From contig JBKBOT010000001.1 in NCBI GenBank assembly GCA_046293555.1, positions 71,270-87,652 of the forward strand: DNA of 16,383 nt. The letters run 5' to 3'. Position 1 is the stretch's first letter, and each line of letters opens with the position of its first letter. The position numbers were made by a program, and so were the translations under genes. Below the pieces are notes generated by a model. The model searched no databases. It saw only the letters and a list, made by a program, of their open reading frames with translations, and was not told where the DNA came from. The stretch is from Pyrobaculum sp. GTDB lineage: Archaea; Thermoproteota; Thermoprotei; Thermoproteales; Thermoproteaceae. Positions 2-16,107 of the stretch are shown here, piece by piece.

Positions 2-1060
2 TCTGTCTACGCCAGGTTGGGAAGGCCCACCCCCCTGATTAGGGCGGAGGGTCTGGAGAAGAGGTTGGGCAGGGGGGTGAGAATTTACTACAAGTATGAG
101 GGCGTGTTGCCCGTGGGGTCACATAAGCTAAACACCGCAGTGGCCCAAGCCTATTACGCCAAGGCCGACGGCGCTGTGGAGATAGCCACAGAAACCGGGG
201 CGGGGCAGTGGGGCATGGCGGCATCTCTTGCCGCAGCTCTTTTTGGCCTCAGGGCTGTGGTCTTCATGACGCGGTCTTCCTACAGCTCGAAAAGACAGAG
301 GGTGGCCTTCATGAAGACATATGGCGCCGTGGTGTATCCAAGCCCGAGCGAGATTACAGAAGCTGGCAGAAGGCACTACCGGCCTGACCACTCCGGCTCT
401 TTGGGCATAGCCATATCTGAGGCTGTGGAGTACGTCCTCTCTGGAGAGAAGAGGCGGTATCTCCCCGGCAGCGTGATGGAATTCGTCTTGTTACACCAGA
501 CGGTAATAGGGCTGGAGGCCATACGGCAGCTGCCCGAGGAGCCAGATGTGGCTGTGGCGTGTGTGGGCGGGGGGTCTAACTTCGGCGGCTTTGTGTACCC
601 CATGTTGGGCATGAAGCTAAGAGGCGAGGGGTTTGAGAAAACGCGTTTTATCGCCGTGGAGTCAACCGCAGCCCCAAAGCTCACCAGAGGGACGTTGAGA
701 TATGACTTCCCAGACGCCGTGGGGGTCCTGCCGATGATCAGAATGTATACCCTAGGTCACAACTACATCCCGCCGGCCGTACATGCGGCAGGTTTGAGAT
801 ACCACGGCGCGGCGCCTAGTTTGTCGTTATTGAGAAAACTCGGCTATGTGGAGGCGTTGGCTTATAGCCAGGAGGAAGTTATGAAGGCAGCCCTCCTTTT
901 TGCCAAAAGCGAGGGGGTTATCCCAGCCCCCGAGTCGGCACATGCGATAAGAGCGGTTTTAGATCTGGCTGAAAAACTGCCGGCAGGCTCTGTGGTGGCT
1001 TTTAACCTCTCTGGACATGGCCTATTAGATGTAGATGCCTACGAGAAGGCATCCGTCTAA
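2..1060 (+). CDS. trpB: Tryptophan synthase beta chain, TrpB2 type (5'-truncated by window edge)
   Basis: Motifs RPTPLIRA, GSHKLNTA (PLP Lys), TETGAGQWG, ACVGGGSNFGG, HAAGLRYHG, APESAHA, FNLSGHG. QWG and GLRYHG are TrpB2-type. The frame is open from position 2 (SVYARLGRPTP), so the real start is upstream of the window. Confidence 0.95.
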   Translation, partial: SVYARLGRPTPLIRAEGLEKRLGRGVRIYYKYEGVLPVGSHKLNTAVAQAYYAKADGAVEIATETGAGQWGMAASLAAALFGLRAVVFMTRSSYSSKRQRVAFMKTYGAVVYPSPSEITEAGRRHYRPDHSGSLGIAISEAVEYVLSGEKRRYLPGSVMEFVLLHQTVIGLEAIRQLPEEPDVAVACVGGGSNFGGFVYPMLGMKLRGEGFEKTRFIAVESTAAPKLTRGTLRYDFPDAVGVLPMIRMYTLGHNYIPPAVHAAGLRYHGAAPSLSLLRKLGYVEALAYSQEEVMKAALLFAKSEGVIPAPESAHAIRAVLDLAEKLPAGSVVAFNLSGHGLLDVDAYEKASV

Positions 1061-3906: not shown

Positions 3907-4616
3907 CTCTCCCCAAGCCGGCTCTAGGGGTGTATCTAGTGGCCGGCTGGCCAGATGTGGCTACCTACAGGGCGGCAGTGGGCGTGCTTAAAGAGTCGGC
4001 GGACTTCTTTGAGTTAGGTGTACCTACGGCAAGCCCGAAGTACGACGGGCCGTTTATACGGAGGGCACATAGAGAGGTGGCCGTTGTCGACTGGAGTAGG
4101 CCAGATGTCGCCACATATCTCATGGCGTATTGGGAGGACCACGTCCACGACCCCTCGAGGCTTTTCAGACTTGCCGTAGATATAGGCGCCAGGGCGGTGT
4201 TGGCGCCTGACTTGTTGATAGATTTTCCAGAGGAGTTAGAGAGATATCTAGACATGAGTAGGGGCCATGGCCTCTCCACCGCCTTTTTTCTTCCCAGCAA
4301 GTTTCCCCACGTCTTGGCGAAAAATATTGCAGAGCTAAAGCCAGATTTCATATATCTAGGCCTCTATGCGGCCACTGGGATCGAGCTGCCTATATATGTG
4401 GAGCGAAATATCGAGCTCTTGAAAAAAATTACGGCTGGCACATATATAGTGGCCGGCTTTGCTATAGATACGCCAGAAAAAGCGGCGAGACTGATAAAGG
4501 CGGGGGCAGATGCAGTAGTGGTAGGCACCGCCTTTATGAAAAAACTAAGGTCTAGCCTAGAGGAGGCGGCCTCTTTTCTAGAGTCGATAAGAACTGCCAT
4601 AAGTAACGCTTTGTGA
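3903..4616 (+). CDS. trpA: Tryptophan synthase alpha chain
   Basis: YLVAGWP, ADFFELGVP...PKYDGPFI (catalytic Glu/Asp), YLMAY, VAGFAI, GADAVVVGTAF. ATGA overlap with trpG; located in the trp cluster. Confidence 0.9.
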   Translation: MTLPKPALGVYLVAGWPDVATYRAAVGVLKESADFFELGVPTASPKYDGPFIRRAHREVAVVDWSRPDVATYLMAYWEDHVHDPSRLFRLAVDIGARAVLAPDLLIDFPEELERYLDMSRGHGLSTAFFLPSKFPHVLAKNIAELKPDFIYLGLYAATGIELPIYVERNIELLKKITAGTYIVAGFAIDTPEKAARLIKAGADAVVVGTAFMKKLRSSLEEAASFLESIRTAISNAL

Positions 4617-4742: not shown

Positions 4743-4756
4743 AAAAGATTTATATA
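4743..4756 (+). promoter_or_regulatory. BRE/TATA promoter for the metB-like gene (AAAAGATTTATATA), probably giving a leaderless mRNA
   Basis: TTTATATA at 4749-4756, 27 nt before the in-frame ATG at 4776, with an A-rich BRE upstream. Confidence 0.7.
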
Positions 4757-4775: not shown

Positions 4776-5930
4776 ATGCGGCGGGGCACCATCCCGGTGC
4801 GTGGCTACAAGAACCCGGATCATTACGGCTCGTTACAGCCGCCTATCTACCAGACTGCCGTATTTAGAATGGAGGGCGAGGCTCTTAAGTCCGACAGGGG
4901 GTTTGACCTAAAGTACAGCCGGGAGGAAAACCCAACCCTCCGCCCTCTTGAGGAGGTACTTGCAAGACTGGAAGAGGGAGTTGACGCCCTGGCTTTTAAC
5001 AGCGGGATGGCGGCCTTGTCTACCGTCTTTCTCGCCTTGCTCGAGGCCGGCAGCTCTATATTAGCCCCCATGGAGTCCTACGGCGCCACGTTGAGACTTC
5101 TGGCATCTCTAGAGAAGTACGGCATAAGGCTTAGAAAGGCCTATCCAGACACAGAGATTTATATCGAAGAGCTAAAGGCCTCCCGGCCCACCGTGGCGTT
5201 TTTTGAAACTATCACAAACCCCAACCTTAAGGTTTTTGACGTCCCAGAGGTAATCAAGGCGGCTAGAGACCTCGGGGCCTGGGTGGTGGTAGACAACACT
5301 TTTGCCACGCCGGTGTTAATCACGCCGATAGCCCACGGGGCAGATCTAGTGGCTCACTCCGCCTCGAAGTATTTAGCTGGACATAACGACGTGATAGGCG
5401 GCGCGGTGGTAGCCGCCAGCCGTGAGCTCGTAGAGGAGCTCTGGCTCTGGAGAGCCATGTTGGGCACCATAATGCAGCCTTTTGAGGCCTATCTCACCTT
5501 GAGGGGAGTCAAGACGTTGGGAGTTAGGTTTGAACAACAGTGTAAAAACGCCATGGCTGTGGCAGAGTTTCTCGTAGAACATAGCAAGGTGGCTGAAGTG
5601 ATGTATCCAGGTCTCTCCACACATCCACATCACCACATAGCTAGAAAACTCTTCGGCGGTAGGTACGGCGCCGTGGTGTCCTTTAAGATCAGGGGGGGTC
5701 AGGAGGCCGCCATAAGGTTTTTCAAGTTTCTAAAGGTAATAACGCCGAGTCCGAGCCTAGGCGGCGTGGAGAGTATAGCCACATACCCCATCACCAGCGC
5801 CGCATCTCCTATAGCAGACGAGGAAAAAAGGCTTTTAGGCATCACAGAGGAGTTAATACGGCTGTCGGTAGGTATAGAAGACCCTCAAGATCTCATCGAG
5901 GATCTAGACCAGGCGTTGAAAAACGCCTAA
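4776..5930 (+). CDS. metB: Cystathionine gamma-synthase / Cys-Met metabolism PLP-dependent enzyme
   Basis: PPIYQT, YSREENPT, FNSGMAA, ETITNP, VVDNTFATP, HSASKYLAGHND (PLP Lys), SLGGVES, LIRLSVGIED. Start placed at ATG 4776 because ATG 4758 abuts the TATA box. Exact specificity (synthase vs lyase) cannot be read from the sequence. Confidence 0.85.
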   Translation: MRRGTIPVRGYKNPDHYGSLQPPIYQTAVFRMEGEALKSDRGFDLKYSREENPTLRPLEEVLARLEEGVDALAFNSGMAALSTVFLALLEAGSSILAPMESYGATLRLLASLEKYGIRLRKAYPDTEIYIEELKASRPTVAFFETITNPNLKVFDVPEVIKAARDLGAWVVVDNTFATPVLITPIAHGADLVAHSASKYLAGHNDVIGGAVVAASRELVEELWLWRAMLGTIMQPFEAYLTLRGVKTLGVRFEQQCKNAMAVAEFLVEHSKVAEVMYPGLSTHPHHHIARKLFGGRYGAVVSFKIRGGQEAAIRFFKFLKVITPSPSLGGVESIATYPITSAASPIADEEKRLLGITEELIRLSVGIEDPQDLIEDLDQALKNA

Positions 5931-6226
5931 CGTATATACAGCAAGCCGTCGGCAGTAGTTCCAATAGTTAAAACTCCGGCAGTCCTCTCTATGGCTAACA
6001 CACGCCACCTTTCTATCTTTACGCCACAGGAGAGGTAGAGATATCCGCCGTCTTTCACCACGTGGAATCTTCCATATACTACAAGCTCGGAGCCGGGGAC
6101 CTCTAGCGCCATCTTGACGGCTTGACATGGGGCAGGCGTGGAGAGATGGACGAAGGTAGCTACATAGCTAGAAAAAGTCGCCACCGCCAGGAGGAGAAGA
6201 GCGGCTAGAGTAAGCTCCTCAGTCAC
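5927..6226 (-). CDS. Small membrane-anchored pilin-like protein (99 aa)
   Basis: N-terminal MTEE followed by a hydrophobic helix, then a beta-rich tail with 2 Cys. GTGA overlap with the upstream gene; last gene of the pilus cluster. Confidence 0.65.
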   Translation of the reverse strand: MTEELTLAALLLLAVATFSSYVATFVHLSTPAPCQAVKMALEVPGSELVVYGRFHVVKDGGYLYLSCGVKIERWRVLAIERTAGVLTIGTTADGLLYIR

Positions 6227-6474
6227 GGCTTAAATCGACAGCTCATATTTAACACCCTGTAGGCCACCCCAGGGGGGGCCTCTAGAACCCCCCTATCTCT
6301 ACACACCACGTGGCTCAACGTGAGGTTTTTCTCCTCAACCCACCTATAGGCCTCGGGCCAGTAGAGAAAAACCGCCGTGAGGTCAGTCTTAGCCACCTCC
6401 ACCGGCTTGAAAAAAGACATGGTGGCCACAGCTAGGCCAAAGAGTATGGGGATAAACACCAGCTCTACCCTCAT
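6223..6474 (-). CDS. Small membrane-anchored pilin-like protein (83 aa)
   Basis: Start re-placed at ATG 6474 (MRVELVFIPILFGLAVATMSFF). 2 Cys; NLT and NMS sequons. Confidence 0.6.
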   Translation of the reverse strand: MRVELVFIPILFGLAVATMSFFKPVEVAKTDLTAVFLYWPEAYRWVEEKNLTLSHVVCRDRGVLEAPPGVAYRVLNMSCRFKP

Positions 6475-6493: not shown

Positions 6494-6506
6494 GGGAAAA
6501 ATGTTA
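6494..6506 (-). promoter_or_regulatory. Cluster motif TAA-CA-TTTTTCCC
   Basis: Exact copy, 32 nt before ATG 6474. Confidence 0.5.
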
Positions 6507-6980
6507 ACATCTCACCAGCACAAGTCTTATCGTAAACTGGTACCCGGCCTCCGCAGCCTCTGGGTCAAACTCTGTAGCTGTGTCACATGTGGCGTAGTAG
6601 TGGGTAATCTTCCCCCCATCTACTGCAGGTAGTATGTAGGAACAGTCTGTGAGATGTATGGTGTTGTTCTCCATGGTATAAGTAACTCCCATCAACATGT
6701 GGGGTGGGGGACAGCGCCCCAAAGCCAATACTGAGAGAGGTGGGGTCGTGTGGCTAGTGGGGGCGGGGACCAAAAGCCACGACCTCGTGTCGTAATACGC
6801 CAGATAGTTCCTCACGCCAATTGGCACGTGGGATTTTACCCACCTTTCCGCCTTTATAGATTCAGCCACATGTCTAACCGTCCAGTAGTCTTTCTGAAAG
6901 ACTGTAGACATCGAGGCCGTTATGACTACAGTAAAGGCTAAAGCCGCAGTGATGGTCAACAGGGCTTTGGCTGATAACAT
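6504..6980 (-). CDS. Membrane-anchored/secreted protein, putative minor pilin (158 aa)
   Basis: N-terminal hydrophobic helix (KALLTITAALAFTVVITASMS), 4 Cys including the C-terminal residue, NNT sequon. Confidence 0.65.
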   Translation of the reverse strand: MLSAKALLTITAALAFTVVITASMSTVFQKDYWTVRHVAESIKAERWVKSHVPIGVRNYLAYYDTRSWLLVPAPTSHTTPPLSVLALGRCPPPHMLMGVTYTMENNTIHLTDCSYILPAVDGGKITHYYATCDTATEFDPEAAEAGYQFTIRLVLVRC

Positions 6981-9856
6981 ATCCTCAACTCAGACCGCAA
7001 GCCTCTGGGGTACCCCACCCCATCTGCCCAAGTTTTAAACAAAAGCCGCGCCTTAGGCCGCCACAACGTCACAACGTCGCCAGGCTTGGCCCAAACCTCT
7101 TGCCTAACTAGCGGTATGACCAAGACGGGGTCCCAGGGGAAGACATAGGTGGCGTTGATGTAGACAACCCCGCCCGTGGTTTCTGCGACTTTTGTCCACA
7201 CGCCGCCTTGCATCTGGTAGAAGCCAAAACCCGCCACGGGCCCTCCTGCCGCCACTTTCACCACGCCGCCGCCTATAACCTCAAATATCGGCTCGGAGAC
7301 ATGTTCCACAATCTCCACCCGCCCCAAGATCTCAAAATATTTCTGAAAGTCGCCGACATATACGGCCTGCGGGCTTGCCCCGCTTTCGGCACATCTATAC
7401 ATAAACTGCCTCCCGCCGGCGCTAAACGCGTTTATGCCGTGGAAATAGGGGGCGCCGTCTAGGTATAAATATAGCGAAACGTTCAGCTGGGGGGTCGCCA
7501 ATACGGGCGGCATATAGGCGACGCTCTTGACTAGATACGAGACGTGGCTAGATACAAAAAAGGCGAAGTGGTGCCTCCGGCCGGAGTCAACCTCCTCCAC
7601 CACGACTTGGAGCGGGCCTGTGTAGTTACTCGGCGTGACGTATAGCGGCTTGGCGCCCACGACGACAGGACGGCAGCCTGTAGCCAGCCCGCCATCTACA
7701 TGCCAGCCGGGGCCGACATATAACGTATCGAAGGTATCCCACACCCTCGATATATTTGCTAACAACAGCCAGCGGCCCCACCTGCCGTTACCTGTGGACA
7801 CCACGTGGCCCATCTCTACCCAAAGCCTTACCGTAAGCCACTTTCTCTCCCCGATGTATGTCAACATGAAGGAATAGCCGGCGCCAGGCAGGGCCAGAGC
7901 CGCGGCGACGCCAGGCGGCCACAGTGTGGTATTTAGCTCTATACACATCATGTCTAGACATGCGGTAGTTGGAGCTAATGCCAACAGCCAGCTTGAAGAG
8001 ACGTTAGAAGGCATGGTGGGGGCGCCTAGAGGCAACGCGTCTGTCCACCCCGCCGGGATCTCCGCGTCTGAAACGCCTTCCCACATGTAGTCATAAAAAC
8101 GGCCGTAGGTGGGGTCCGCGGCCTGGTGTAAAAGCCTCTCTCCAGCTCTGGTGGTGTTTCTATATTCGGCAGCTGGATAGACCACACTCAGCATAGAGGC
8201 CTGGTGGGGTGGAGGCAAGATGCATTCAGACGATATGTCGAAATCGCCTGTTTCTGGGCTAAAGCGGTAGGTCTTAAGCCTATAGGTGTGCCAATAGTCG
8301 AGATGGGGGTCGCCCCACAGTAGGGTTAAAAGATCTCTAAACCCAGCCAGTCCACATATTGGCGACATGGAGGCCGCCAGCCAGTCCACTAGCTTCAGTC
8401 TGGAGATTGGCCACTGGACGCCGCCCCGTGGCCCCACTTTTGCATATCCCACCCAACTGCCGTTAGCTTTAGTGTATACATGTTGGCTATAGACGCAGTG
8501 GACGGCCTCTCTAGGCCACTGGCGGCAGGGATCCGGCGGCGAGTACCACGCCACGTCGAGTCTCTTATTGTCATTATCTATAGCCACGTGGAGGTAGGCC
8601 CAAGCCCGCCTGCCGGGGGGAGGTGCCTGGTAGTACAGCTTACCGTTGGCGGCAGCCCTCTCGTAGTCTAAAAGCTTCCCTCTGTCGTCTACCGCCCGTA
8701 GATATGTGCCGTGTGAATCTACCCACACGTCGCCGAGTTTCCACAACACCATGGCGCCTAGCCGCGTGGCGGACCCTAGCGGCATTTTTACCACCAAACG
8801 CCGGCCTAAAAGCGTCTTGTCGCCAGCCCTCACGGCGACATGGGGTAATAACGTCAAGTTTGTCCTAATGGCTACTGCGGCCAGGGCGCCACGCCAGACC
8901 CAACTCGCCCCAATCCAGGTGGAGTTACCCACCGCGTTTATTACAAAACAGTCAGGCGGCTTACATATATCCACCCCCATGGCCACTCTTGAGACATATA
9001 GAGGCACCTCACGCGGGGGGCTAACCTCCAACTCGCCCCATTGGGACGGCACTGCGACCACCGAGATTGACGCCTTGGCGGCAAACGGCTTTTTCCACAC
9101 GTCGCCTATATACACCCCAGCGGGCGAGAGGTCTGTATATACAACCGCGGTGTCTCTCCCCAAATCGTTGTAAAACCGGCGGTCTGTATAGAGCCAGATC
9201 TGCGGGATTTTAGCCGAGACAACACCAGTGTTCACAACGTCGCCCGGCCTTCTGCCGTCTAGCTCCAAGGCGTGCCACCACTGGGGGCTTCTGCCAGCTA
9301 ATACGAGGTTTGTGCCCACATATGGCGTCTTGCAGAACGGCCAGCTTTTATCGTCAGGAAGCTCCACACAAAGGTCGACACGCCACCAGTGTTTTATGGG
9401 GATAGACGCCTTGATGTACTCCACGGCCTTTTTCCTCACCTCAGATACCACAAACCTCACGGTCTTTCTCTCTCTCTCGGGCTCTTTTGCCACCCTGTAG
9501 TATATCCCCCACCACCCGCCGTCTTTCCAACATTCGTAGCGCTCTATCCGCCACGGCGAGTCTGGCTGGAAGTACTCCAGCTCGATGCTATACTCCAGAG
9601 CTTTATCCCACCTGCCAGTAGAAGGCGTGGAGTATATCAACGCCGTGGTGGCGTTATAAAACGTGGCTCCCCACACCACTGTCTTCTCAAAGCCGGAGGT
9701 TAAAACCAGCGGCTTCCCCCAAGCCGGCGCCCAGGTCTCAAAGCTAAACTCCACTGAGATAACCCCAGTGGTGTCGACGTCGTAAGTCCCCGTCTTCACA
9801 CAAGTCACCGCGGCTATCGCCAGTTGTGCCAATAGTATTAGGCCCAGTAGCCGCAT
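6956..9856 (-). CDS. Large secreted beta-rich protein, putative pilus-associated adhesin/tip or surface protein (966 aa)
   Basis: Sec-type signal MRLLGLILLAQLAIAA; rich in Trp/Tyr/Val; 16 Cys; about 11 N-x-S/T sequons; no obvious C-terminal anchor. Function inferred from context only. Confidence 0.7.
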   Translation of the reverse strand: MRLLGLILLAQLAIAAVTCVKTGTYDVDTTGVISVEFSFETWAPAWGKPLVLTSGFEKTVVWGATFYNATTALIYSTPSTGRWDKALEYSIELEYFQPDSPWRIERYECWKDGGWWGIYYRVAKEPERERKTVRFVVSEVRKKAVEYIKASIPIKHWWRVDLCVELPDDKSWPFCKTPYVGTNLVLAGRSPQWWHALELDGRRPGDVVNTGVVSAKIPQIWLYTDRRFYNDLGRDTAVVYTDLSPAGVYIGDVWKKPFAAKASISVVAVPSQWGELEVSPPREVPLYVSRVAMGVDICKPPDCFVINAVGNSTWIGASWVWRGALAAVAIRTNLTLLPHVAVRAGDKTLLGRRLVVKMPLGSATRLGAMVLWKLGDVWVDSHGTYLRAVDDRGKLLDYERAAANGKLYYQAPPPGRRAWAYLHVAIDNDNKRLDVAWYSPPDPCRQWPREAVHCVYSQHVYTKANGSWVGYAKVGPRGGVQWPISRLKLVDWLAASMSPICGLAGFRDLLTLLWGDPHLDYWHTYRLKTYRFSPETGDFDISSECILPPPHQASMLSVVYPAAEYRNTTRAGERLLHQAADPTYGRFYDYMWEGVSDAEIPAGWTDALPLGAPTMPSNVSSSWLLALAPTTACLDMMCIELNTTLWPPGVAAALALPGAGYSFMLTYIGERKWLTVRLWVEMGHVVSTGNGRWGRWLLLANISRVWDTFDTLYVGPGWHVDGGLATGCRPVVVGAKPLYVTPSNYTGPLQVVVEEVDSGRRHHFAFFVSSHVSYLVKSVAYMPPVLATPQLNVSLYLYLDGAPYFHGINAFSAGGRQFMYRCAESGASPQAVYVGDFQKYFEILGRVEIVEHVSEPIFEVIGGGVVKVAAGGPVAGFGFYQMQGGVWTKVAETTGGVVYINATYVFPWDPVLVIPLVRQEVWAKPGDVVTLWRPKARLLFKTWADGVGYPRGLRSELRICYQPKPC

Positions 9857-9875
9857 ATGCCTTTTGGCTCTCTAG

Positions 9876-9888
9876 GGGAAAAACCTTA
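9876..9888 (-). promoter_or_regulatory. Cluster motif TAA-GG-TTTTTCCC
   Basis: Exact copy, 32 nt before ATG 9856. Confidence 0.5.
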
Positions 9889-10455
9889 GGGACACCCCAC
9901 TGGGAGATATATGGGGTAGTCCACTATATATATAAACGCGGCGTCTCGAGGCGCCAGGACATATAGCGTAGATGTGCCGTTGTGATACACCAAGGCGTGT
10001 TCCGTCCTGACGAGCTCCCCACCTGCCTGACCTCCAACATACGCCAGAGTTTCTAGCCAGGGCAAGAAGTCGACAGAGTGGACTAGAGAGATCTCATACA
10101 ACACCGCCGGCTCTCCAGACGGCTTTAACGCCTCTATACACCTCACTACCTCTAGGTGTAGCTGATATGTCACATATCTGCCCTCGCCCCGTAGCCTGTA
10201 GCCCACGGGCACATTGCCCCCGGCCTGCGGGCTGCCGGCAGAGAGAGGTTTTACAAGCGTTATGTTAAAACCACTGCGGAAGACATTTATGTCGTCAGTT
10301 TTGTTAAGGAGATGTAGGTCTCTAAACTTGGCCTTGGCTAGGTAGAGCTCCTCGGCGGTATTTATAAAGGCAACCTGGGGGCTGTGGACCACGGCTAAAA
10401 TAGCCACAAGAGACGTGAGCGCCAGAGCTATAACTCCATACGCCACAGCCCACAT
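9886..10455 (-). CDS. Membrane-anchored protein, putative minor pilin (about 189 aa)
   Basis: N-terminal TM helix (MWAVAYGVIALALTSLVAILAVV); sequons NKT, NIT, NGT; 2 Cys. The start is ATG 10455 (1 nt after the upstream stop) or GTG 10464. Confidence 0.65.
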   Translation of the reverse strand: MWAVAYGVIALALTSLVAILAVVHSPQVAFINTAEELYLAKAKFRDLHLLNKTDDINVFRSGFNITLVKPLSAGSPQAGGNVPVGYRLRGEGRYVTYQLHLEVVRCIEALKPSGEPAVLYEISLVHSVDFLPWLETLAYVGGQAGGELVRTEHALVYHNGTSTLYVLAPRDAAFIYIVDYPIYLPVGCP

Positions 10456-10456
10456 A

Positions 10457-10768
10457 TTACCCACAGGAGATGTATATTAAGCCGCCCCTAGCCTGTATAT
10501 ACATGACGCCACAAGCCACCACCTCTCCCACCGCCAGCGGCCTCTCCCCTAGATACGCCCAGCCGAATCTAGCCGCCGGCCTCCCGGCCACATAAAGCAC
10601 GGCGGAGTGTTCCAGCTGTTGTACATACCCCTGCGTCACCTTAAAGACGCAGTCTGAACACTGCACCACCTGGCTCACGCCCTCATATATGGGAAAGAGG
10701 GCAGCAATAAACGCCGCGACAAAAGCCAACACCCCAGAGGCCACCAGAAGCTCCTCGACTTCCCTCAT
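10457..10768 (-). CDS. Putative minor pilin (103 aa)
   Basis: Start re-placed at ATG 10768 (ATGA overlap with the upstream stop). MREVEELLVASGVLAFVAAFIAALFP has Glu at +5 and a hydrophobic helix; 4 Cys. Confidence 0.65.
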   Translation of the reverse strand: MREVEELLVASGVLAFVAAFIAALFPIYEGVSQVVQCSDCVFKVTQGYVQQLEHSAVLYVAGRPAARFGWAYLGERPLAVGEVVACGVMYIQARGGLIYISCG

Positions 10769-11193
10769 GGACACCTGTACTGCGCCACCAGCCACCTCCC
10801 CCGCGAGGCGAGACCCACCGGGGTACAAGACGACGTGTTAACAGAGTGGCCATACGGCGGCGGACACCACAAGCCTGTATACGGATCGCCCACCCTAACC
10901 GGGCGTCTAGCCTCGCAACGATAGCCGCCGGGATAGAGCTCAAAAACTGCCACCAGCTCGCCGGGGGGGCCCACATATTTTCTAAACCTCTCCACATCTC
11001 CCCCATATTCCACGAGGTAGAGGCCGTCCGAGCTGTTGTAGACATAGACCACCCTCGTGGGCATATTTCCGCCGGGAGAGATGGGCATCTCTACAAGCCT
11101 CCAGTACATATACTGTTGAGCCACCATAGCCACATATATCAACAACGCCGTCAGTGCGGCCATAAAGACCGCTACTGCGACAAAATGGTCCAT
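10765..11193 (-). CDS. Putative minor pilin (142 aa)
   Basis: MDHFVAVAVFMAALTALLIYVAMVA helix, beta-rich domain, 4 Cys, NSS and NTS sequons; directly downstream of the major pilin. Confidence 0.65.
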   Translation of the reverse strand: MDHFVAVAVFMAALTALLIYVAMVAQQYMYWRLVEMPISPGGNMPTRVVYVYNSSDGLYLVEYGGDVERFRKYVGPPGELVAVFELYPGGYRCEARRPVRVGDPYTGLWCPPPYGHSVNTSSCTPVGLASRGRWLVAQYRCP

Positions 11194-11254
11194 AGCCTCG
11201 GCGAAATATACCTTCCTACAAACACCGCCTTGTGACGCCAGGTCGAAGCCATGG

Positions 11255-11260
11255 AAAAAA
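11255..11260 (-). terminator. Possible oligo-T terminator after the major pilin gene
   Basis: T6 run 22 nt after the pilin stop. Oligo-T termination is established in archaea; this site is untested. Confidence 0.3.
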
Positions 11261-11271
11261 TGGGTGGGGTT

Positions 11272-11284
11272 GGGAAAAACGTTA
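11272..11284 (-). promoter_or_regulatory. Cluster motif TAA-CG-TTTTTCCC
   Basis: Exact copy, 32 nt before an ATG at 11252. Confidence 0.45.
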
Positions 11285-11725
11285 AGAAATTCCCACCGTA
11301 ACTACCCCCTTTGCCACTTGTACAGTCTTTCCGCTAGACGCATCTATTGCATATATGACGTATGTATATTGTGTCCCTGGTGTAAGGGTGGCGGGGAATC
11401 TACATGTCGCAGACTGACCAGCCGTCAGGTTTAGGCTATTGCTCATCGCGTTGATTTGCCGTGCCGTAACGCACCTCCCAGTAATTGGGTTGCCTAAATT
11501 CTGTCCGCTTTGGGCATAGGCTAGCAACAAGCCGGATAGTCTGCCGTTTAGGATTTCTACCGTTACGTCAAATCCAGCCCTGTCTGTAGTCACTATGGCG
11601 TTTGCCCTCAGGGCCTCTGCTGCAGATTTTCCCATTCCCTGAAATGTGAGCACAGCTATAACTCCGATGATCACAAACGCCGCGGCTACTAACAGCGCCT
11701 CGACGCTTATCATACCTCTCGCCAT
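11282..11725 (-). CDS. Archaeal type IV pilin, probable major pilin (class III signal peptide)
   Basis: MARG|MISVEALLVAAAFVIIGVIAVLTF: basic residue-Gly cleavage site, Glu at +5, hydrophobic alpha-1. C-terminal LTPGTQYTYVIYA strand pattern typical of archaeal pilins; one Cys pair; NLT sequon. Confidence 0.85.
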   Translation of the reverse strand: MARGMISVEALLVAAAFVIIGVIAVLTFQGMGKSAAEALRANAIVTTDRAGFDVTVEILNGRLSGLLLAYAQSGQNLGNPITGRCVTARQINAMSNSLNLTAGQSATCRFPATLTPGTQYTYVIYAIDASSGKTVQVAKGVVTVGIS

Positions 11726-11745
11726 GAGTGGAGCTGGAGGTGGGT

Positions 11746-11758
11746 GGGAAAAATGTTA
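11746..11758 (-). promoter_or_regulatory. Cluster motif TAA-CA-TTTTTCCC
   Basis: Exact copy, 33 nt before the pilin ATG 11725; no Shine-Dalgarno in between. Confidence 0.5.
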
Positions 11759-12958
11759 GAAGAGGTACCCCAAGGCCAGGTTTGCCAAGAGGCCCGCGGC
11801 GCCTCCTAACGTCAGAGAGTTGTGTAGCCCCAGGGGGGCTAGAAACACCGTGGCGTAAAGCGCGATGATTGTAGCCATCGTTATAGACAACATCTGTCTT
11901 ACCTCCTCTAGAGGCGGCGGGGAGAGAAATGGGATGTAGCCCCCCACATCTATCCCGCCTAGAGTCTTCACCGCGGTGGAGATAGAGTAGGCGAGGACGA
12001 GCACGGCAAATGTAAACAAGGCGAAATAGGCCCCGGCCAGTTTTAACATCTTTTTTACTGTCTGTGTCTCTAGGTCTATTAACGTCTGGATGTGTTCCAC
12101 AGCCCTTATGGCCGTAGATCCTCCGGCCTCTGTGATGGCGCGATACATGCCGCGCGCCAGTATGAAGTATTTCGACGGGACAAAATAGCCATATGCAATC
12201 TTCTGCGCGATTTTAAACCTATCTGACAACCGTCCGGTGATGACATCTGGAGGCGCGCCTTCTTTCAACAGGGCTGCGGCAGATCTCAACATGGGGGCTA
12301 TCTCCCCCCTTATCTTAAACCACCACAGGCGGCTGGTTGCCACAAGCCATCCATATAGCAAGAAGCCCGCAGCTAGAAAGAAAAGTGGTGGCGTGGCGAT
12401 GTAGGCCGCCAAAAGGCCTGTCGAGATGGCGGCGGGAAAAGCCCAGCTGTAGGCCTTAGCCAGAGAGACGTCTTTTGGGGTGACATAAATCGCGTAGAGC
12501 CCCATAGCCGCCGCGATGGATAGAACTACTGCAGCCAGCGAGATGCCGTCTATAGCCACAACGCCAAGCGCCCAGAGGAACAGAAAGAAGAGAGGCAGTA
12601 TAAACAACGCCCCCAGCGACGAGGATATAGACTCGTAAACCCGCGCCCGCGCCTCTGTTTTCGCCAACGCCAGAGACCTTACAGACTCTAGGAAGGAGTG
12701 CACCACAACCTGTCTATCTACTCCAGACTCCTCTTGCGCCAAGGCGAAGCCAAAAAGCCTGGCGGCTTCCGACTTGTCTTCTAGAAAGTGGCTAGAGGGA
12801 GCCGGCGTGAGCGACGCCACAAATAGCCTCCTGGCCTCTCTCTCGTCAAGCTCGGCCACATTTAGGGCGCAGAGCCTCAAGGCGTCATTTCCAGAAATTG
12901 CCCCCAGATAGATCGCAAAGATGGGGGCCGTATATAGGTAGAAATCCTCTCTGCCCAC
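11756..12958 (-). CDS. Type IV pilus membrane platform protein (T2SS-F / TadB-TadC / ArlJ-like)
   Basis: Two cytoplasmic helical regions, each followed by TM bundles (about 7 hydrophobic segments). EIAPMLRSAAALLKEGAPP resembles the T2SS-F repeat start. Located between the ATPase and the pilin. Confidence 0.75.
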   Translation of the reverse strand: MGREDFYLYTAPIFAIYLGAISGNDALRLCALNVAELDEREARRLFVASLTPAPSSHFLEDKSEAARLFGFALAQEESGVDRQVVVHSFLESVRSLALAKTEARARVYESISSSLGALFILPLFFLFLWALGVVAIDGISLAAVVLSIAAAMGLYAIYVTPKDVSLAKAYSWAFPAAISTGLLAAYIATPPLFFLAAGFLLYGWLVATSRLWWFKIRGEIAPMLRSAAALLKEGAPPDVITGRLSDRFKIAQKIAYGYFVPSKYFILARGMYRAITEAGGSTAIRAVEHIQTLIDLETQTVKKMLKLAGAYFALFTFAVLVLAYSISTAVKTLGGIDVGGYIPFLSPPPLEEVRQMLSITMATIIALYATVFLAPLGLHNSLTLGGAAGLLANLALGYLF

Positions 12959-12980
12959 AAGGGGGAAAGCCCACCGTGGG

Positions 12981-12993
12981 GGGAAAAAGGTTA
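12981..12993 (-). promoter_or_regulatory. Cluster motif TAA-CC-TTTTTCCC
   Basis: Exact copy, 35 nt before GTG 12958. Confidence 0.45.
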
Positions 12994-13332
12994 GAAGAGA
13001 TTAGACAAGACCTCCCTAATGTGCGCCAGCTTTCCCGCCCTCTCCACGGCTTTTGGCAGCTCTCTCACGGCATCTACAGGTGGGAGACCTGTGGAGACAC
13101 GTCGCAGTATGTAGTCAACAGCTAGCTCTAGGTGTCTACTTAAGTCAACCGATTTGGCTAACTCACGCCAGTCCTCTTCCTCAAGCCAGACCCCCGCCCC
13201 CGCGAGGCGGCGCATGGCCTTAAAAAGCCTCTTCTCTCTCACGCCGAGTTCTTTAGCCAGCTCACATATCCACCTAGCCGTCGAGAGGGTAAAACCCTTT
13301 TTGACGGCTAGCTTCTCTATGGGGCACATCAC
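12991..13332 (-). CDS. Small cytoplasmic helical protein with a winged-HTH-like segment (113 aa)
   Basis: ICELAKELGVREKRLFKAMRRLAGAGVW matches the ELAxxLGV...hxxLxxxGh HTH pattern. 4-nt overlap with the upstream gene. Confidence 0.55.
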   Translation of the reverse strand: MMCPIEKLAVKKGFTLSTARWICELAKELGVREKRLFKAMRRLAGAGVWLEEEDWRELAKSVDLSRHLELAVDYILRRVSTGLPPVDAVRELPKAVERAGKLAHIREVLSNLF

Positions 13333-13556
13333 CTCCAGTTAAGCAGCAAGAGGGCTAGCCTTGTATATGGGTCGTTTTTACTTTCCAGCGCCTTTATGAG
13401 GACCTCCTTGGGGACTGCGCGGAGTATTTCTTGAGCCAGCTGAGGCGGCATTTCTACCAACGCCTTGACTAGGCAGTCCTGCCAAGACTCGCCAGCAGGC
13501 GTTTTGTCTCCCTCTATCCCGCCCGCCAGCGTCTCTTCAAGCCTTTTTCTCAACAT
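13329..13556 (-). CDS. Small helical hypothetical protein (75 aa)
   Basis: Strong SD GGAGGTGG (13569-13562) 5 nt before ATG 13556. The stop overlaps the next start. Confidence 0.65.
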   Translation of the reverse strand: MLRKRLEETLAGGIEGDKTPAGESWQDCLVKALVEMPPQLAQEILRAVPKEVLIKALESKNDPYTRLALLLLNWR

Positions 13557-13574
13557 GTGTCCCACCTCCCACAG

Positions 13575-15113
13575 TTAGGAAAAATTTTGGTAACTAAATC
13601 TCGACGCCTCTTGAAAGAGGGGCGTCCTGAAATCCAGCCTACTGGTCCACACCGTCTCTACAATAGACCTCCTTACGGCTAGGGGGTCCTCCATGTCGCT
13701 CGCCTCTACCAACGCCTCTGTTCTCAATGTCAGCTCTTCCTTCAGCTTAACTCCATACATCTCTTCTACATATTGCGCCACCCGCGGGGTGACCTCCGAG
13801 GCGTCGGCCACCACCACGTCTCTACCTCTTGCTAAAACTGTTTTAACCTCTTTTACATATCTCGTGCCGCCGGCGGTAGACAGCTGTATTACAAGTATCC
13901 CCTCGAGCCCCTCTATAGCTGCCTCTGACTCCACGACTCTAGCCACGGCGTCTTTTACGGTGTCCGCATGTATGGTGGTAAGCGCGCCGTGGCCTGTAAG
14001 CTTGTAGTTAACTAACGTCTTTAGCTCCGCCGGAGTTCTCGCCTCTGCCAAAGCCACGACGGTGTGTGCAGTGCCGTATCTCAAGGCTTGGTCTAAAGCC
14101 TGCCACAACCTCTCCTCGCCTGGGATAGACAAGTGGAGTAGCTGGCCCTCGAGAGGCGCCCAGATCTCTCTGGCGCCTCTCTCTATCACAACCACCTGGA
14201 CCCACGGCGGCGTTAAGTAAAGCAGCTGGTTTAACTGCGTGGTTTTTCCGGACCCCATACCGCCAGAGAAAAAGACCCCACCTCTCATTTCTAACACCAG
14301 AGAGGCGAGGGCCAACACCTCTAGCCCCTCTAAGCTTTGTCTCTCGGCGTGATCCCTCTGTCCCGTCTGAGGTCTGTGGAGATATGGCGTCAATAGCGGC
14401 CTGGAGGGCTTAGGCACGTCTGAAAACTTGCGGATATTGACGTTAAACTCTATGAGATCTGCAGCAATCCGCGCCTTGTATATCGGGTCCTCTCTTGTGG
14501 CCATCGGCTTGTCCATCGTGAGGACTGGGATAAGCTGTTTCACTACTACATACATCAGCGGCTCTGGGATCACTATGTTTGTAGGCAGTCGGAACTCGTT
14601 ACGTACAGCCACAACCCTCCTGTATCTCCCCAATTCAACCATTTGAAAGGTTATGTAGTCTAGCTGCTCTCTTAACGTCTTAGGCACATATGTGTACTTA
14701 GCCGCGGGGGCGGCGGGGTGGGGGATCACCACCTCTGTGAGGAAGCTATCTCGCATCAACGCCTCCAACGCCCCGTAGCCCGCGTAGTCTCTGGCGCCAC
14801 TCCACCGGTCTAACAGGTAGTGTACCACCTCCCTGTAGTCTCTATAAAGCCGCCAGATGGCTCTATCCCCAAGGCCCTCCGATATGGACCTCACGACTTT
14901 GGGGTACTCCCTCTCGTCTGGCGGCACAGACCCTCTAAACATTACTAACAACAACGCTGCCTGTAGGTCTTCTGGCAGCGGCGGGTCTATGACTACATAC
15001 ATCAAGTCGTCAGTAATACATATGTCTGTCCTCACCCCCCTATCCACAATAACCCCATCTTTTCTTAGCCTACATCTAGACGTCAGGAAGTTGTCTACAT
15101 GTGCATATATCAT
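13575..15113 (-). CDS. Secretion/pilus assembly ATPase, VirB11/TadA(CpaF)/ArlI family, divergent
   Basis: GYGALEALMRD..LTEV, NIRKF, Walker A GGMGSGKTT, Asp-box-like VIERGARE, Walker B-like ALRY...VALAEAR, His box TGHGALTTIHA. Confidence 0.88.
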   Translation of the reverse strand: MIYAHVDNFLTSRCRLRKDGVIVDRGVRTDICITDDLMYVVIDPPLPEDLQAALLLVMFRGSVPPDEREYPKVVRSISEGLGDRAIWRLYRDYREVVHYLLDRWSGARDYAGYGALEALMRDSFLTEVVIPHPAAPAAKYTYVPKTLREQLDYITFQMVELGRYRRVVAVRNEFRLPTNIVIPEPLMYVVVKQLIPVLTMDKPMATREDPIYKARIAADLIEFNVNIRKFSDVPKPSRPLLTPYLHRPQTGQRDHAERQSLEGLEVLALASLVLEMRGGVFFSGGMGSGKTTQLNQLLYLTPPWVQVVVIERGAREIWAPLEGQLLHLSIPGEERLWQALDQALRYGTAHTVVALAEARTPAELKTLVNYKLTGHGALTTIHADTVKDAVARVVESEAAIEGLEGILVIQLSTAGGTRYVKEVKTVLARGRDVVVADASEVTPRVAQYVEEMYGVKLKEELTLRTEALVEASDMEDPLAVRRSIVETVWTSRLDFRTPLFQEASRFSYQNFS

Positions 15114-15811
15114 ATCTTAATCCGCATGACCAGCTGCTCTATAGACCTCCTGTTTTCCCGATCTCCCAACACGGAGTTAGCCACAGCCTCGCCATAGTAC
15201 TCAGAGATCTTCACCCGCTTCAACACCACCGGCGCGATTTTTTTAGCCATCTTGACCTCATCTCTATCCACCATATTTATCGCCACGAGGGTGGAATAGG
15301 CCATATACTTCCGATACTGTTCGTTCTTTATGTCAGAAATACGGGAGATAAGCCGCCTGTCTGACATAAAGATGGTAAAGACCCCCATGTGTTGAAGTCG
15401 AGCCAACACCTCTAGCCTCAGGGCGGCTGTGGTGTCTATCACCACTGTGTCTACCGGGATACGTAAAGACTGGACAAATTTAGGCATGTAGCTAGCCCAC
15501 TCCAGTAGGGCCTCCTGAAAGTCCCCCGTGGCCTCTTCCCCCAACTTTTGATATACTTCAAAGGCCTCGTAGCCCGGGATTAGATACAACATGGGGTTTA
15601 CCCTATGTACGTAAGGCCTCTCCCCCTTTAAAAACGGCGCCAGCCATCCCACCCTCCTGGGGGCTCTAAACAGTTGAGACAGATCTGCCTTCTCCCAGTC
15701 CATATCTACCAGCAGGGTGTAGCCCTTAGCTATAGCCAAAACAGTGGCGAGAGTAGTCTTGCCGACACCCCCATCTAGAGAGGAGATAGCCACCACTCTT
15801 ACCGGCCTCAT
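15110..15811 (-). CDS. MinD/ParA (TadZ/CpaE-like) P-loop ATPase
   Basis: VVAISSLDGGVGKTTLA, LLVDMD (switch I), LYLIPG, VVIDT (Walker B), INMV. ATGA-coupled to the assembly ATPase. Confidence 0.82.
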   Translation of the reverse strand: MRPVRVVAISSLDGGVGKTTLATVLAIAKGYTLLVDMDWEKADLSQLFRAPRRVGWLAPFLKGERPYVHRVNPMLYLIPGYEAFEVYQKLGEEATGDFQEALLEWASYMPKFVQSLRIPVDTVVIDTTAALRLEVLARLQHMGVFTIFMSDRRLISRISDIKNEQYRKYMAYSTLVAINMVDRDEVKMAKKIAPVVLKRVKISEYYGEAVANSVLGDRENRRSIEQLVMRIKI

Positions 15812-16107
15812 ATCAACGCCAGAAGTCTCTCATAGATGTAAGCCACTGCGGCGTTTTTTACGGCGACCCAATCTGCCACCGGCCCCACCTCCCGCCTTAT
15901 CTTCCTCAAGAGATGTGACGCAGTTTTTATGTCAGATAGCTCTCTCAGCCCCAGGAGGGAGGGTCTAAGCAAGATGGCTCCCCCCCTGAGGTTCGACAGC
16001 GCCAGCCTTACGGCGATACATACGTCTTTATACCTCTCGAAGAACATACGCCGGCCGCAACTCCTCCTAAGTGCCTCCAATAGGTCTAAAGTGCGTGGGT
16101 CAAACAT
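15808..16107 (-). CDS. Basic helical hypothetical protein (99 aa)
   Basis: Co-oriented ORF whose stop overlaps the MinD-like start (ATGA). GAGG upstream of the ATG; no TM segment. Confidence 0.65.
   Translation of the reverse strand: MFDPRTLDLLEALRRSCGRRMFFERYKDVCIAVRLALSNLRGGAILLRPSLLGLRELSDIKTASHLLRKIRREVGPVADWVAVKNAAVAYIYERLLALI

Follow-up and report, generated by a model that had tools for sequence, protein, structure and literature searches.

Transcripts without a 5'-UTR are reportedly known from Pyrobaculum aerophilum since the original account of Slupska et al. in 2001. Ten such transcripts of this species are reported in the accessible part of PMC2151090. Pyrobaculum and Thermoproteus possess a type IV pilus system of subclade 4G (Makarova, Koonin and Albers 2016, PMC4858521); the accessible text of that paper calls the function of its two small helical proteins unclear. 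In Sulfolobales, the ups, ced and tfb3 promoters carry a DNA-damage element, 5'-ANTTTC-3', which according to the accessible part of Sun et al. 2018 (PMC6061795) is bound by Orc1-2. Finally, the Ted DNA-exchange system is the subject of a 2023 paper, consulted here in its main text (PMC9905601; structure PDB 8dft). The word "promoter" has no occurrence in the accessible text of the Ted paper, supplements aside. The same holds for the accessible text of the 4G paper, so that, again with the supplements set aside, the element presented below is not described there. A literature search on the TTTTTCC motif, and on transcription starts, RNA-seq or promoter motifs in Pyrobaculum, found nothing relevant among the papers listed.

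The DNA analysed here (“the window”) is a stretch of 16,383 nucleotides from a Pyrobaculum genome of 1,752,777 bases, hereafter G000. Judged against the published description, one same-strand cluster of the window has a gene content in keeping with a subclade 4G system. Its genes and predicted units, with the presence of the repeated element discussed below, are the following:

16107-15808, minus strand: 99-aa ORF, in the upstream overlapping unit 13575..16107, without an element in front
15811-15110, minus strand: MinD/ParA-like ATPase (CbiA/ParA-like at E 1.7e-5, narrowly below the cut-off), without an element in front
15113-13575, minus strand: T2SSE-type secretion ATPase (T2SSE, E 2.2e-9), without an element in front
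13556-13329, minus strand: 75-aa protein, small and all-helical, of no known family; its gene overlaps that of the 113-aa protein
13332-12991, minus strand: 113-aa protein, small and all-helical, of no known family
11756..12958, minus strand: TadC-like polytopic membrane platform protein of 400 aa, without Pfam match, with orthologues in 22 of 28 family genomes
11282..11725, minus strand: pilin-like protein of 147 aa with a hydrophobic N-terminal helix, without Pfam match, with a conserved orthologue
9886..11193, minus strand: three overlapping genes (142, about 103 and 189 aa), each product with an N-terminal hydrophobic segment; one predicted unit
6504..9856, minus strand: 966-aa signal-peptide protein (9856-6956) and overlapping 158-aa gene (6980-6504); one predicted unit
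5927..6474, minus strand: membrane proteins of 83 aa (6474-6223) and 99 aa (6226-5927); predicted last unit

As in the 4G systems, to the extent that these are described in the accessible text of PMC4858521, the cluster comprises a diverged secretion ATPase, a diverged TadC, a PilA-type pilin and a FleN/MinD-like ATPase, together with two small helical cytoplasmic proteins, a large signal-peptide protein and many small cysteine-containing pilin-like proteins. A solved relative of the pilin was sought and none was found, the best match having an E-value of 0.047. G000 and its nearest relative are devoid of a coiled-coil, C-terminally anchored protein of ~325 aa. The gene of this protein follows the pilin gene in genome G001 (locus L026), and a homologue is present in G006 (L038); in most related loci, an ORF of 304-340 aa lies behind the pilin gene.

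A short T-rich element recurs within this cluster. The first-pass annotation had claimed five exact copies and a sixth, variant one on the minus strand, and all are present at the positions it gave:

13577..13589, minus strand: variant element CAAAATTTTTCCT, that is CAA-AA-TTTTTCCT; first T 13584, which precedes ATG 13556 (75-aa gene) by 28 nt
12981..12993, minus strand: element TAA-CC-TTTTTCCC, TAA being the stop of the 113-aa gene; first T 12988, which precedes GTG 12958 (TadC-like gene) by 30 nt
11746..11758, minus strand: element TAA-CA-TTTTTCCC, TAA being the stop of the TadC-like gene; first T 11753, which precedes ATG 11725 (pilin-like gene) by 28 nt
11272..11284, minus strand: element TAA-CG-TTTTTCCC, TAA being the stop of the pilin gene; first T 11279, 27 nt before ATG 11252
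9876..9888, minus strand: element TAA-GG-TTTTTCCC, TAA being the stop of the 189/192-aa gene; first T 9883, which precedes ATG 9856 (966-aa secreted protein) by 27 nt
6494..6506, minus strand: element TAA-CA-TTTTTCCC, TAA being the stop of the 158-aa gene; first T 6501, 27 nt before ATG 6474 of the 83-aa membrane protein

The pattern TAANNTTTTTCCC has five matches in the window, all on the minus strand, against 0.01 expected by chance, and none of 200 shuffled windows attains five. Counted from the first base of the motif, the next start codon lies 32, 32, 32, 33 and 35 nt downstream of the exact copies and 33 nt downstream of the variant, in agreement with the distances first claimed; counted from the first T, the same six sites give 27, 27, 27, 28, 30 and 28 nt. 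The doubling of TAA as the upstream stop codon also holds, since the preceding ORFs end at 6504, 9886, 11282, 11756 and 12991 in the five exact copies. The run of five T's thus begins 2 nt past a stop codon at five of the six sites; the sixth (13589-13577) falls inside the final codons of the ATPase ORF, which has its stop at 13577-13575. The spacers between element and start are C-rich and without SD at five of the six sites, and the one ahead of the 75-aa gene contains the SD-like GGGAGGTGGGA. The ATG at 11252 opens an ORF of 26 codons only; the next real gene, for 142 aa, begins at 11193, 86 nt past the first T.

Genome-wide, TAANNTTTTTCCC has eight exact copies in G000, of which five are inside the pilus locus, and the same figures (eight and five) are obtained for AANNTTTTTCY followed by a start codon 25-31 nt on. 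One match, at contig position C9:21408, is taken as chance, as only a 19-codon frame lies downstream. A generic post-stop sequence, the outcome that would have spoken against the promoter proposal of the first-pass annotation, was considered and rejected: the 130 copies of TTTTTCCC in the genome show no favoured distance to starts outside the locus.

The ordinary promoters of the genome provide the reference frame for these distances. Canonical TTTAWAWA boxes most often have their first T 27 nt upstream of a start, with AAANNTTTAWA beginning at 32 nt; over 493 confident starts, the maxima lie at -31/-30 for A and at -27..-24 for T. A canonical comparator is available in the window itself, at the place where the first-pass annotation had put the promoter of its metB:

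4744..4756, plus strand: comparator AAAGATTTATATA, that is AAA-GA-TTTATATA; begins 32 nt before ATG 4776, the second ATG of an ORF listed from 4758

At all six sites of the pilus locus, the first T stands 27-30 nt before the start, against the canonical peak of 27, and AA is found at -4/-3 from this T, the position of the purine-rich BRE of the genome. The box, however, is not an A/T-rich 8-bp TATA box of the TTTAWATA type, as it reads TTTTTCCC/T. Scored with a matrix of the canonical promoter, the six sites fall at the 14th-42nd percentile of the 493 confident starts and at the 40th-86th percentile of random positions; they are non-canonical, as had been proposed, and the ordinary model would not predict promoter activity from such low scores. 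TTTTTC in the same register is found at only three of the 493 confident starts of G000. The elements thus resemble the leaderless BRE/TATA promoters of Pyrobaculum in their distance to the start, in the position of the BRE A's and in the T-rich beginning of the box, as well as in the use of the previous gene's stop codon, which in tightly packed genes is often part of the BRE. They differ from them in the box, TTTTTCC or TTTATCC instead of TTTAWATA, in the 18-20 nt spacer between box and start, where each position is a C in 22-44 of 73 sites, compared with a C content of 10-21% at ordinary promoters, and in the confinement of the element class to two kinds of loci.

The element is conserved in the orthologous spacers, a comparison that the first-pass annotation had put forward: 16 related loci of the same genus carry it ahead of the same gene families, in the form YAA-RS-TTTTTCC or sometimes TTTATCC, with the proviso that related genomes are kin and that counts across them overstate the independent support. 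It precedes the pilin gene in 15 of the 16 loci, the TadC-like gene in 13, the 966-aa family in nine of the ten loci with a homologue, the 83-aa family in five of seven and the 75-aa gene family in 10 of 15. The 99-aa ORF, the MinD/ParA-like ATPase and the secretion ATPase have it in front in 0-1 of the 14-15 related loci. Where a gene overlaps the one upstream of it, the motif is missing: the count is 0/15 for the ATPase and again 0/15 for each of two minor pilin-like genes. The window and the 16 loci together contain 82 sense-strand copies of TTTTTCC, 68 of them at 26-30 nt before a start and three at the control offset of 36-40 nt.

Over 90 genus sites, the distance between box and start is 27 nt in 40 cases, 28 in 36, 29 in eight, 30 in five and 26 in one, so that 76 of the 90 lie at 27-28 nt. 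The upstream stop is found at -5 from the first T in only 37 of these sites and ranges overall from -114 to +29. As the start distance is fixed while the stop wanders, the spacing tracks the downstream start, which bears out what had been deduced from the window. Of 73 genus sites, 67 and 68 retain the first and the second A, respectively, and 67 have a T run of exactly five, whereas the spacer has no conserved sequence but is C-rich. The variant TTTATCC/TTTATCT occupies the same register at 17 of the 90 sites, which shows that the T's need not be uninterrupted, and in most species the element reads GG-W5-CC. A pattern scan of 18 genomes of the genus gives 128 matches, against 55 for the reversed control. 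Sorted by hand on their coordinates, 73 of the 128 fall inside 4G loci or no more than 1 kb away from one; Ted-like clusters account for 32, and the remaining 23 are found at other places.

Judging from these sequence comparisons, the best reading of the six elements, at a probability of about 70%, is that of non-canonical core promoters from which the 4G type IV pilus locus is transcribed in leaderless units. Their placement at the usual promoter position of the organism suggests that they most likely act as special promoters, by which the pilus genes would be turned on together. The two A's would stand at the BRE position of the genome (-31/-30) and TTTTT(C)C in the TATA slot from -27, and transcription would begin at or next to the start codon, yielding leaderless mRNAs. 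The internal leaderless promoters proposed in the first-pass annotation are hence favoured by the shared BRE/TATA register, the conservation in the genus and the start-linked spacing. The elements would divide the 4G-type locus into units that are initiated separately and controlled in common, predicted as 75+113 aa, TadC-like, pilin, 142+103+189 aa, 966+158 aa, and 83+99 aa. The unit behind the third site (11272..11284) would not be leaderless, given the distance to its real gene, and the SD-like sequence before the 75-aa gene counts against the promoter reading in that it would permit translation from a read-through transcript. The box deviates from the A/T-rich TATA consensus by its conserved C/CC and is followed by a C-rich spacer; such a box would probably be used poorly by TBP/TFB on their own and need an extra factor. 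This requirement would allow the locus to be switched as one block and, in other species of the genus, the Ted DNA-exchange genes likewise. As a secondary effect, the T5 run may additionally halt read-through from the preceding gene.

What reads the box is the sole point on which the next explanation departs from the core-promoter reading, with which it otherwise overlaps. TTTTTCC (GG-W5-CC in most cases) could be mainly the binding site of a dedicated regulator, activator or repressor, located at the TATA position: an operator or factor-specific promoter rather than a TBP site, with the 75-aa/113-aa pair or a TFB paralogue as candidate readers. We regard this as possible, somewhat short of an even chance. 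A TBP box would have neither the 3' C/CC nor the low canonical score, and genomes of the family possess several TFIIB-domain ORFs each. The small pair co-occurs with the motif: extra 75-aa/113-aa gene pairs in G004, G011, G007, G013 and G009 are all located in motif-carrying clusters, and the 75-aa family is present in 15 of 17 genomes of the motif genus but in 0/9 and 0/2 genomes of two motif-less genera, an absence that is weak because the search used a single short query. The presence of the motif ahead of the pair's own unit in 10 of 15 loci would moreover provide for autoregulation. The co-occurrence may, on the other hand, reflect mere common ancestry of the modules; the 113-aa family also occurs in seven of nine genomes of a motif-less genus, and the TFIIB-domain ORFs are found in all three genera, motif-bearing and motif-less alike.

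Nor does either small protein display a DNA-binding family or fold. Pfam and NCBIfam assign no family to the 75-aa and 113-aa proteins. The structure model of the 113-aa protein (pLDDT 89.4) comprises six helices, for which Foldseek finds no match in the PDB at E <= 0.001; in a wider fold comparison the best hit is a designed cage (Z 6.2) and no family stands out, an Atlas search gives no usable match, and an alignment against viral contigs reveals no relative. The helix-turn-helix that the first-pass annotation had seen in this protein is therefore not confirmed, there being neither a family nor a clear fold match. The model of the 75-aa protein is poor (pLDDT 63.3). Candidates for a dedicated factor are a TFB paralogue or the co-occurring 75-aa/113-aa proteins, the latter as putative cognate regulators. 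The alternative TBP suggested at the outset is not supported, since 28 of 29 family genomes have one TBP gene (with two adjacent repeats).

Oligo-T tracts are a known termination signal in archaea. A run of five T's right after a stop codon, as seen at five of the six sites, also resembles such a terminator, and this counts against the promoter reading. If the elements were mainly intrinsic terminators or insulators, their distance to the next start would be a by-product of tight gene packing. At least five T's on the coding strand just after a gene end are indeed found at those five window sites, and 37 of the 90 genus sites have the run at the same place behind the stop. The position is not tied to the upstream gene end, however: the stop roams from -114 to +29 while the start remains at 27-28 nt, and one site lies inside the ATPase ORF, ahead of its stop. 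Neither is the T run itself conserved, being broken (TTTATCY) in 17 of 90 sites; where it is intact it is held at exactly five T's (67/73) between conserved AA and CC, flanks that a terminator does not need. A scan for bacterial-type hairpins finds a weak stem before only one of the six sites. All this makes a mainly terminating role unlikely. An even smaller chance is given to an action within a polycistronic RNA, where the element would be a processing site or a landing site for a protein or the ribosome at the next, SD-less cistron. The C-rich, mostly SD-less spacers, the constant distance to the start codon and the sister genus, in which the same genes overlap and look co-transcribed, agree with such a role. 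It would nevertheless make the match with the genome-wide BRE/TATA register a coincidence, no Rfam family is found in the window, and the spacer has no conserved sequence. We know of no mechanism that would involve an RNA signal at -27. Least credible, and hardly to be expected at all, is an antisense promoter read from the reverse complement, GGGAAAAA-NN-TTA, and directed against the 3' end of the upstream gene. Only the near-symmetry of TATA-like boxes, visible in the GG-W5-CC of most species, speaks for it. The orientation of the elements is always that of the genes; against the 82 sense copies, the antisense strand of the window and the 16 loci has 17, with none in register with a start, and the conserved AA is on the side expected for the BRE of a sense promoter.

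The element also occurs in a second kind of locus. In six other genomes of the genus, the TedC-like pilin genes of Ted-like clusters carry it about 28 nt before their ATG, and the ParA-like and RadA/KaiC-like genes of these clusters possess the same element in the same register. One of the TedC-like pilins matches the solved TedC chain 8dft_A with an E-value of 7.5e-64. Within G000, a single TedC query returned no match and a VirB4-like query only weak P-loop matches; the sharing between type IV pilus and DNA-exchange promoters thus holds for the genus, and in G000 only the pilus locus was found. The analogy with ups and ced that the first-pass annotation had drawn loosely is strengthened by these Ted-like clusters. 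As far as the accessible part of PMC6061795 allows the comparison, both elements are short T-rich-then-C motifs common to promoters of type IV pili and of conjugation-like DNA exchange, both lie within about 55 nt of the start codon, and in both cases the sharing suggests one switch for the two machineries. By the same source, the ANTTTC hexamer is absent at all six sites of the window, where five T's precede the C, and the position is fixed at the TATA slot here but variable, from -23 to -55, in Sulfolobales. The organism belongs moreover to a different archaeal order, and its pilus to clade 4G, not to Ups.

Archaeal promoters are usually distinguished by strength only, regulon-specific variants of the core promoter being rare, and the selection of promoters by TFB paralogues or small factors is an open question. 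In this respect, the 12-nt element stands out because, across the genus, it marks almost exclusively the gene sets of two surface machines, exactly on the TATA slot. With only one TBP available, selectivity would, if the regulon reading given below is true, be set downstream of the TATA start and not by the choice of TBP. The natural variants T5CC, T3ATCC and T5CA provide clean templates on which in vitro transcription and footprinting could be carried out. The element also yields a predicted transcription-unit structure for the 4G pilus and a possible function for the two small proteins of 75 and 113 aa, both conserved, as well as the idea that the 4G pilus may cooperate with Ted-mediated DNA exchange. 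Tentatively, and with the odds rather against it, a promoter class common to the genus and dependent on a specific factor (AAGG-TTTWTCC in the TATA slot) might join the 4G pilus and the Ted machinery in one regulon, read by the 75-aa/113-aa pair or a TFB paralogue, and would then represent an independently arisen counterpart, in Thermoproteales, of the Ups/Ced damage response of Sulfolobales.

The minus strand of the window carries a single same-strand gene cluster, from ~16.1 kb down to 5.9 kb, that fits the "subclade 4G" type IV pilus system described for the Pyrobaculum-Thermoproteus group (Makarova et al. 2016, PMC4858521).

Genes of the cluster in transcription order
Gene 1, minus strand: 99-aa ORF
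Gene 2, minus strand: MinD/ParA-like ATPase, 233 aa
Gene 3, minus strand: T2SSE-type secretion ATPase, 512 aa (Pfam T2SSE, E 2.2e-9)
Genes 4-5, minus strand: two small proteins, 75 aa and 113 aa
Gene 6, minus strand: polytopic membrane protein (TadC-like), 400 aa, GTG start
Gene 7, minus strand: pilin-like protein, 147 aa
Genes 8-10, minus strand: three small proteins with hydrophobic N-termini
Gene 11, minus strand: signal-peptide protein, 966 aa
Genes 12-14, minus strand: another three small membrane proteins

No promoter for the first operon (99-aa, MinD-like, and ATPase genes) was found just past the high end of the window (contig C1 of the same genome, ~87653-88830). About 100 N directly follow the window there, and ~1.1 kb beyond them lies a sequence with the appearance of a tRNA gene, then a TTTATCC. 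No other stem in a hairpin scan of the window comes near the length of an inverted repeat at 13274-13311, which has 16 pairs (8 G-C) and a 6-nt loop and lies within the 113-aa gene, in its 5' portion.

The five exact copies of TAANNTTTTTCCC placed on the minus strand by the first-pass annotation (6506-6494, 9888-9876, 11284-11272, 11758-11746, and 12993-12981) are all present, for a chance expectation of 0.01; the whole 1.75-Mb genome holds eight. The TAA of all five is the stop codon of the preceding gene. The variant CAAAATTTTTCCT at 13589-13577 is found, as described, within the end of the ATPase ORF. From first T to start codon, the six sites measure 27, 27, 27, 28, 30, and 28 nt. The spacer between the variant and ATG 13556 (13570-13560, minus) contains GGGAGGTGGGA, a Shine-Dalgarno-like run, and the remaining five are C-rich. 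At the third site, the ATG in register (11252) opens merely 26 codons (11252-11172, minus), in a frame differing from that of the 142-aa gene, which begins at ATG 11193, 86 nt past the first T. In the related genome G001 (locus L026), the gene after the pilin gene encodes a coiled-coil protein of ~325 aa with a C-terminal anchor; G006 (L038) holds a homologue, and neither the window locus nor its counterpart in G017, the nearest relative, has one. The third-site promoter may have been left before the next gene following a deletion.

Ordinary promoters of the genome provide the register. The first T of TTTAWAWA peaks 27 nt before starts (75 cases against a background of ~5-15, for ORFs of at least 100 aa), and AAANNTTTAWA begins 32 nt before starts in 26 cases. 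Around 493 starts made unambiguous by a closely preceding stop, A is maximal at -31/-30 (0.39, 0.45) and peaks again at -23/-22, with the T maximum in between (-27 to -24); C is scarce (0.10-0.21) from -26 to -5. The AA of the element falls at -4/-3 counted from its first T, and the element therefore aligns base for base with this register. The metB promoter, cited earlier as the canonical example, is correct given ATG 4776 as the start. Scored with a canonical matrix trained on the 493 regions, the six sites fall only between the 14th and 42nd percentiles of real starts and between the 40th and 86th of random positions. They stand where promoters stand without being ordinary ones. Set beside an archaeal BRE/TATA leaderless promoter, the element matches in placement and differs in lacking an A/T-rich box.

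A genome-wide scan, as the first-pass annotation had proposed, rules out a generic post-stop sequence. The 130 copies of TTTTTCCC show no favoured distance to starts outside the locus, and of eight AANNTTTTTCY with a start 25-31 nt on (ORFs of 40 aa or more), five lie in the locus and three precede implausible ORFs.

TadC-like orthologues are found in 22 of 28 other family genomes: 15/17 in the genus of the window (g1), 7/9 and 0/2 in two other genera (g2 and g3). Sixteen complete g1 loci were compared with the window (213 kb in all). In this combined set, the gene strand bears 82 TTTTTCC, 68 of them 26-30 nt before a start versus 3 at a control offset; the opposite strand bears 17, none in register. 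Seventy-three sites chosen solely by TTTTTCY and a start yield the consensus Y-A-A-R-S-TTTTT-C-C, with A at the two BRE positions in 67 and 68, T before the run in only 6, and an unconserved, C-rich spacer. Relaxing the core to TTT[TA]TC[CT] gives 90 sites, with starts at 27 (40), 28 (36), 29 (8), 30 (5), and 26 nt (1); the stop codon closest on the upstream side falls at -5 in 37 sites and in the rest anywhere from -114 to +29. With a near-constant start distance and scattered stops, the element therefore tracks the downstream start, as had been claimed.

The element precedes the pilin gene in 15/16 loci, the TadC-like gene in 13/16, and the genes of the 966-aa (9/10), 75-aa (10/15), 83-aa (5/7), and 142-aa (7/15) proteins. 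Genes overlapping their upstream neighbour bear it in 0/15 (ATPase), 1/16 (113-aa), and 0/15 each (two pilin-like genes). The element is missing from g2, where the corresponding genes overlap by a few bases (loci L017-L022) and several starts show (A/T)TTTCC-ATG, a similar word placed directly before the start codon. In G017, the TadC-like and 113-aa genes share an ATGA overlap, and no element precedes the former (L025, ~position 4550 of the oriented locus); this one putative promoter was either lost or acquired during the evolution of the genus. One contig end of G020, a genome labelled g2 (L023; C4:1-1104), carries AAGGTTTATCC in register together with TadC-like and 113-aa genes much closer to g1 (67% and 57% identity, versus ~38% and 31-37% in other g2 genomes), for which transfer and mis-binning of the contig are possible explanations.

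Scanning the family for AANNTTTWTCC-N20-22-ATG returned 128 matches in 18 g1 genomes (reversed-pattern control, 55), 8 in 9 g2 genomes (3), and 0 in 2 g3 genomes (1). Sorted by hand against the loci compared, 73 of the g1 matches fall inside 4G loci or no more than 1 kb from them, 32 belong to other clusters, and 23 are elsewhere or unknown, the last no more than the control. One genome, G007, holds two full 4G copies ~125 kb apart (L032, L033). The other clusters encode a MinD-like ATPase, homologues of the 75-aa and 113-aa proteins, a ParA-like ATPase, a large membrane ATPase-like protein, a RadA/KaiC-like protein, and a signal-peptide protein (153-184 aa) resembling TedC, the pilin of the Ted DNA-exchange system. 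The G003 protein matches the solved pilin chain 8dft_A (E 7.5e-64, residues 38-149), in agreement with the TedC model, which begins at residue 38 (Beltran et al. 2023, PMC9905601). A TedC query found no homologue in the genome of the window. TedC-like genes of six genomes have AAGG-TTT(T/A)TCC or a near variant ~28 nt before the ATG, and the element also precedes more genes of the G003, G007, G014, and G015 Ted loci. In G004 and G011 (L041-L047), the Ted-like cluster recurs in several near-identical copies, some at contig ends, which suggests integrated mobile elements.

The T run invites a reading as terminator. The TTTATCC box (AAGGTTTATCC) recurs in the same register in several species and clusters, and TTTTTCA and TTTTTCT precede TadC orthologues; the invariant part is TTT-W-T-C at a fixed distance to the start, not an unbroken T run. 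These variants argue against a pure terminator, as do the site inside an ORF and the lack of a hairpin at 5/6 sites. Termination is improbable as the main role, and the T5 run may still have a secondary one in stopping read-through. An RNA-level signal is very unlikely, and an antisense promoter more remote still.

As to what might read the box, 28/29 genomes have one TBP gene, each as two adjacent repeats, which disposes of the alternative TBP suggested earlier. TFIIB-domain ORFs number several per genome in all three genera; a TFB paralogue is possible, though no particular one stands out. Element and 75-aa/113-aa pair occur together: every extra copy of the pair lies in a motif-bearing cluster, and the pair's own unit is usually preceded by the element. 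With one short query and kin genomes, the 75-aa family was detected only in g1 (15/17, versus 0/9 in g2 and 0/2 in g3), and on this co-occurrence the pair might be the reader. Neither protein has a DNA-binding family (Pfam, NCBIfam) or fold (models of both, structure searches with that of the 113-aa protein), leaving the "HTH" label of the 113-aa protein unconfirmed. A dedicated factor, a proposal overlapping the promoter reading, is tentative and somewhat short of an even chance.

No published description of the element was found in the literature searched on Pyrobaculum, the pilus, and Ted. The Sulfolobales ANTTTC damage element is likewise common to type IV pilus and DNA-exchange promoters; in contrast, the present element lacks the hexamer, has a fixed place at the TATA slot, and serves other systems in another order of archaea. 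We favour, with a probability of roughly 0.7, specialised and probably factor-dependent core promoters that split the 4G pilus locus into co-regulated leaderless units, with activity, start point, and inducibility as we infer them. Their presence before some gene families and absence before genes that overlap an upstream neighbour would then mark out conserved transcription units.
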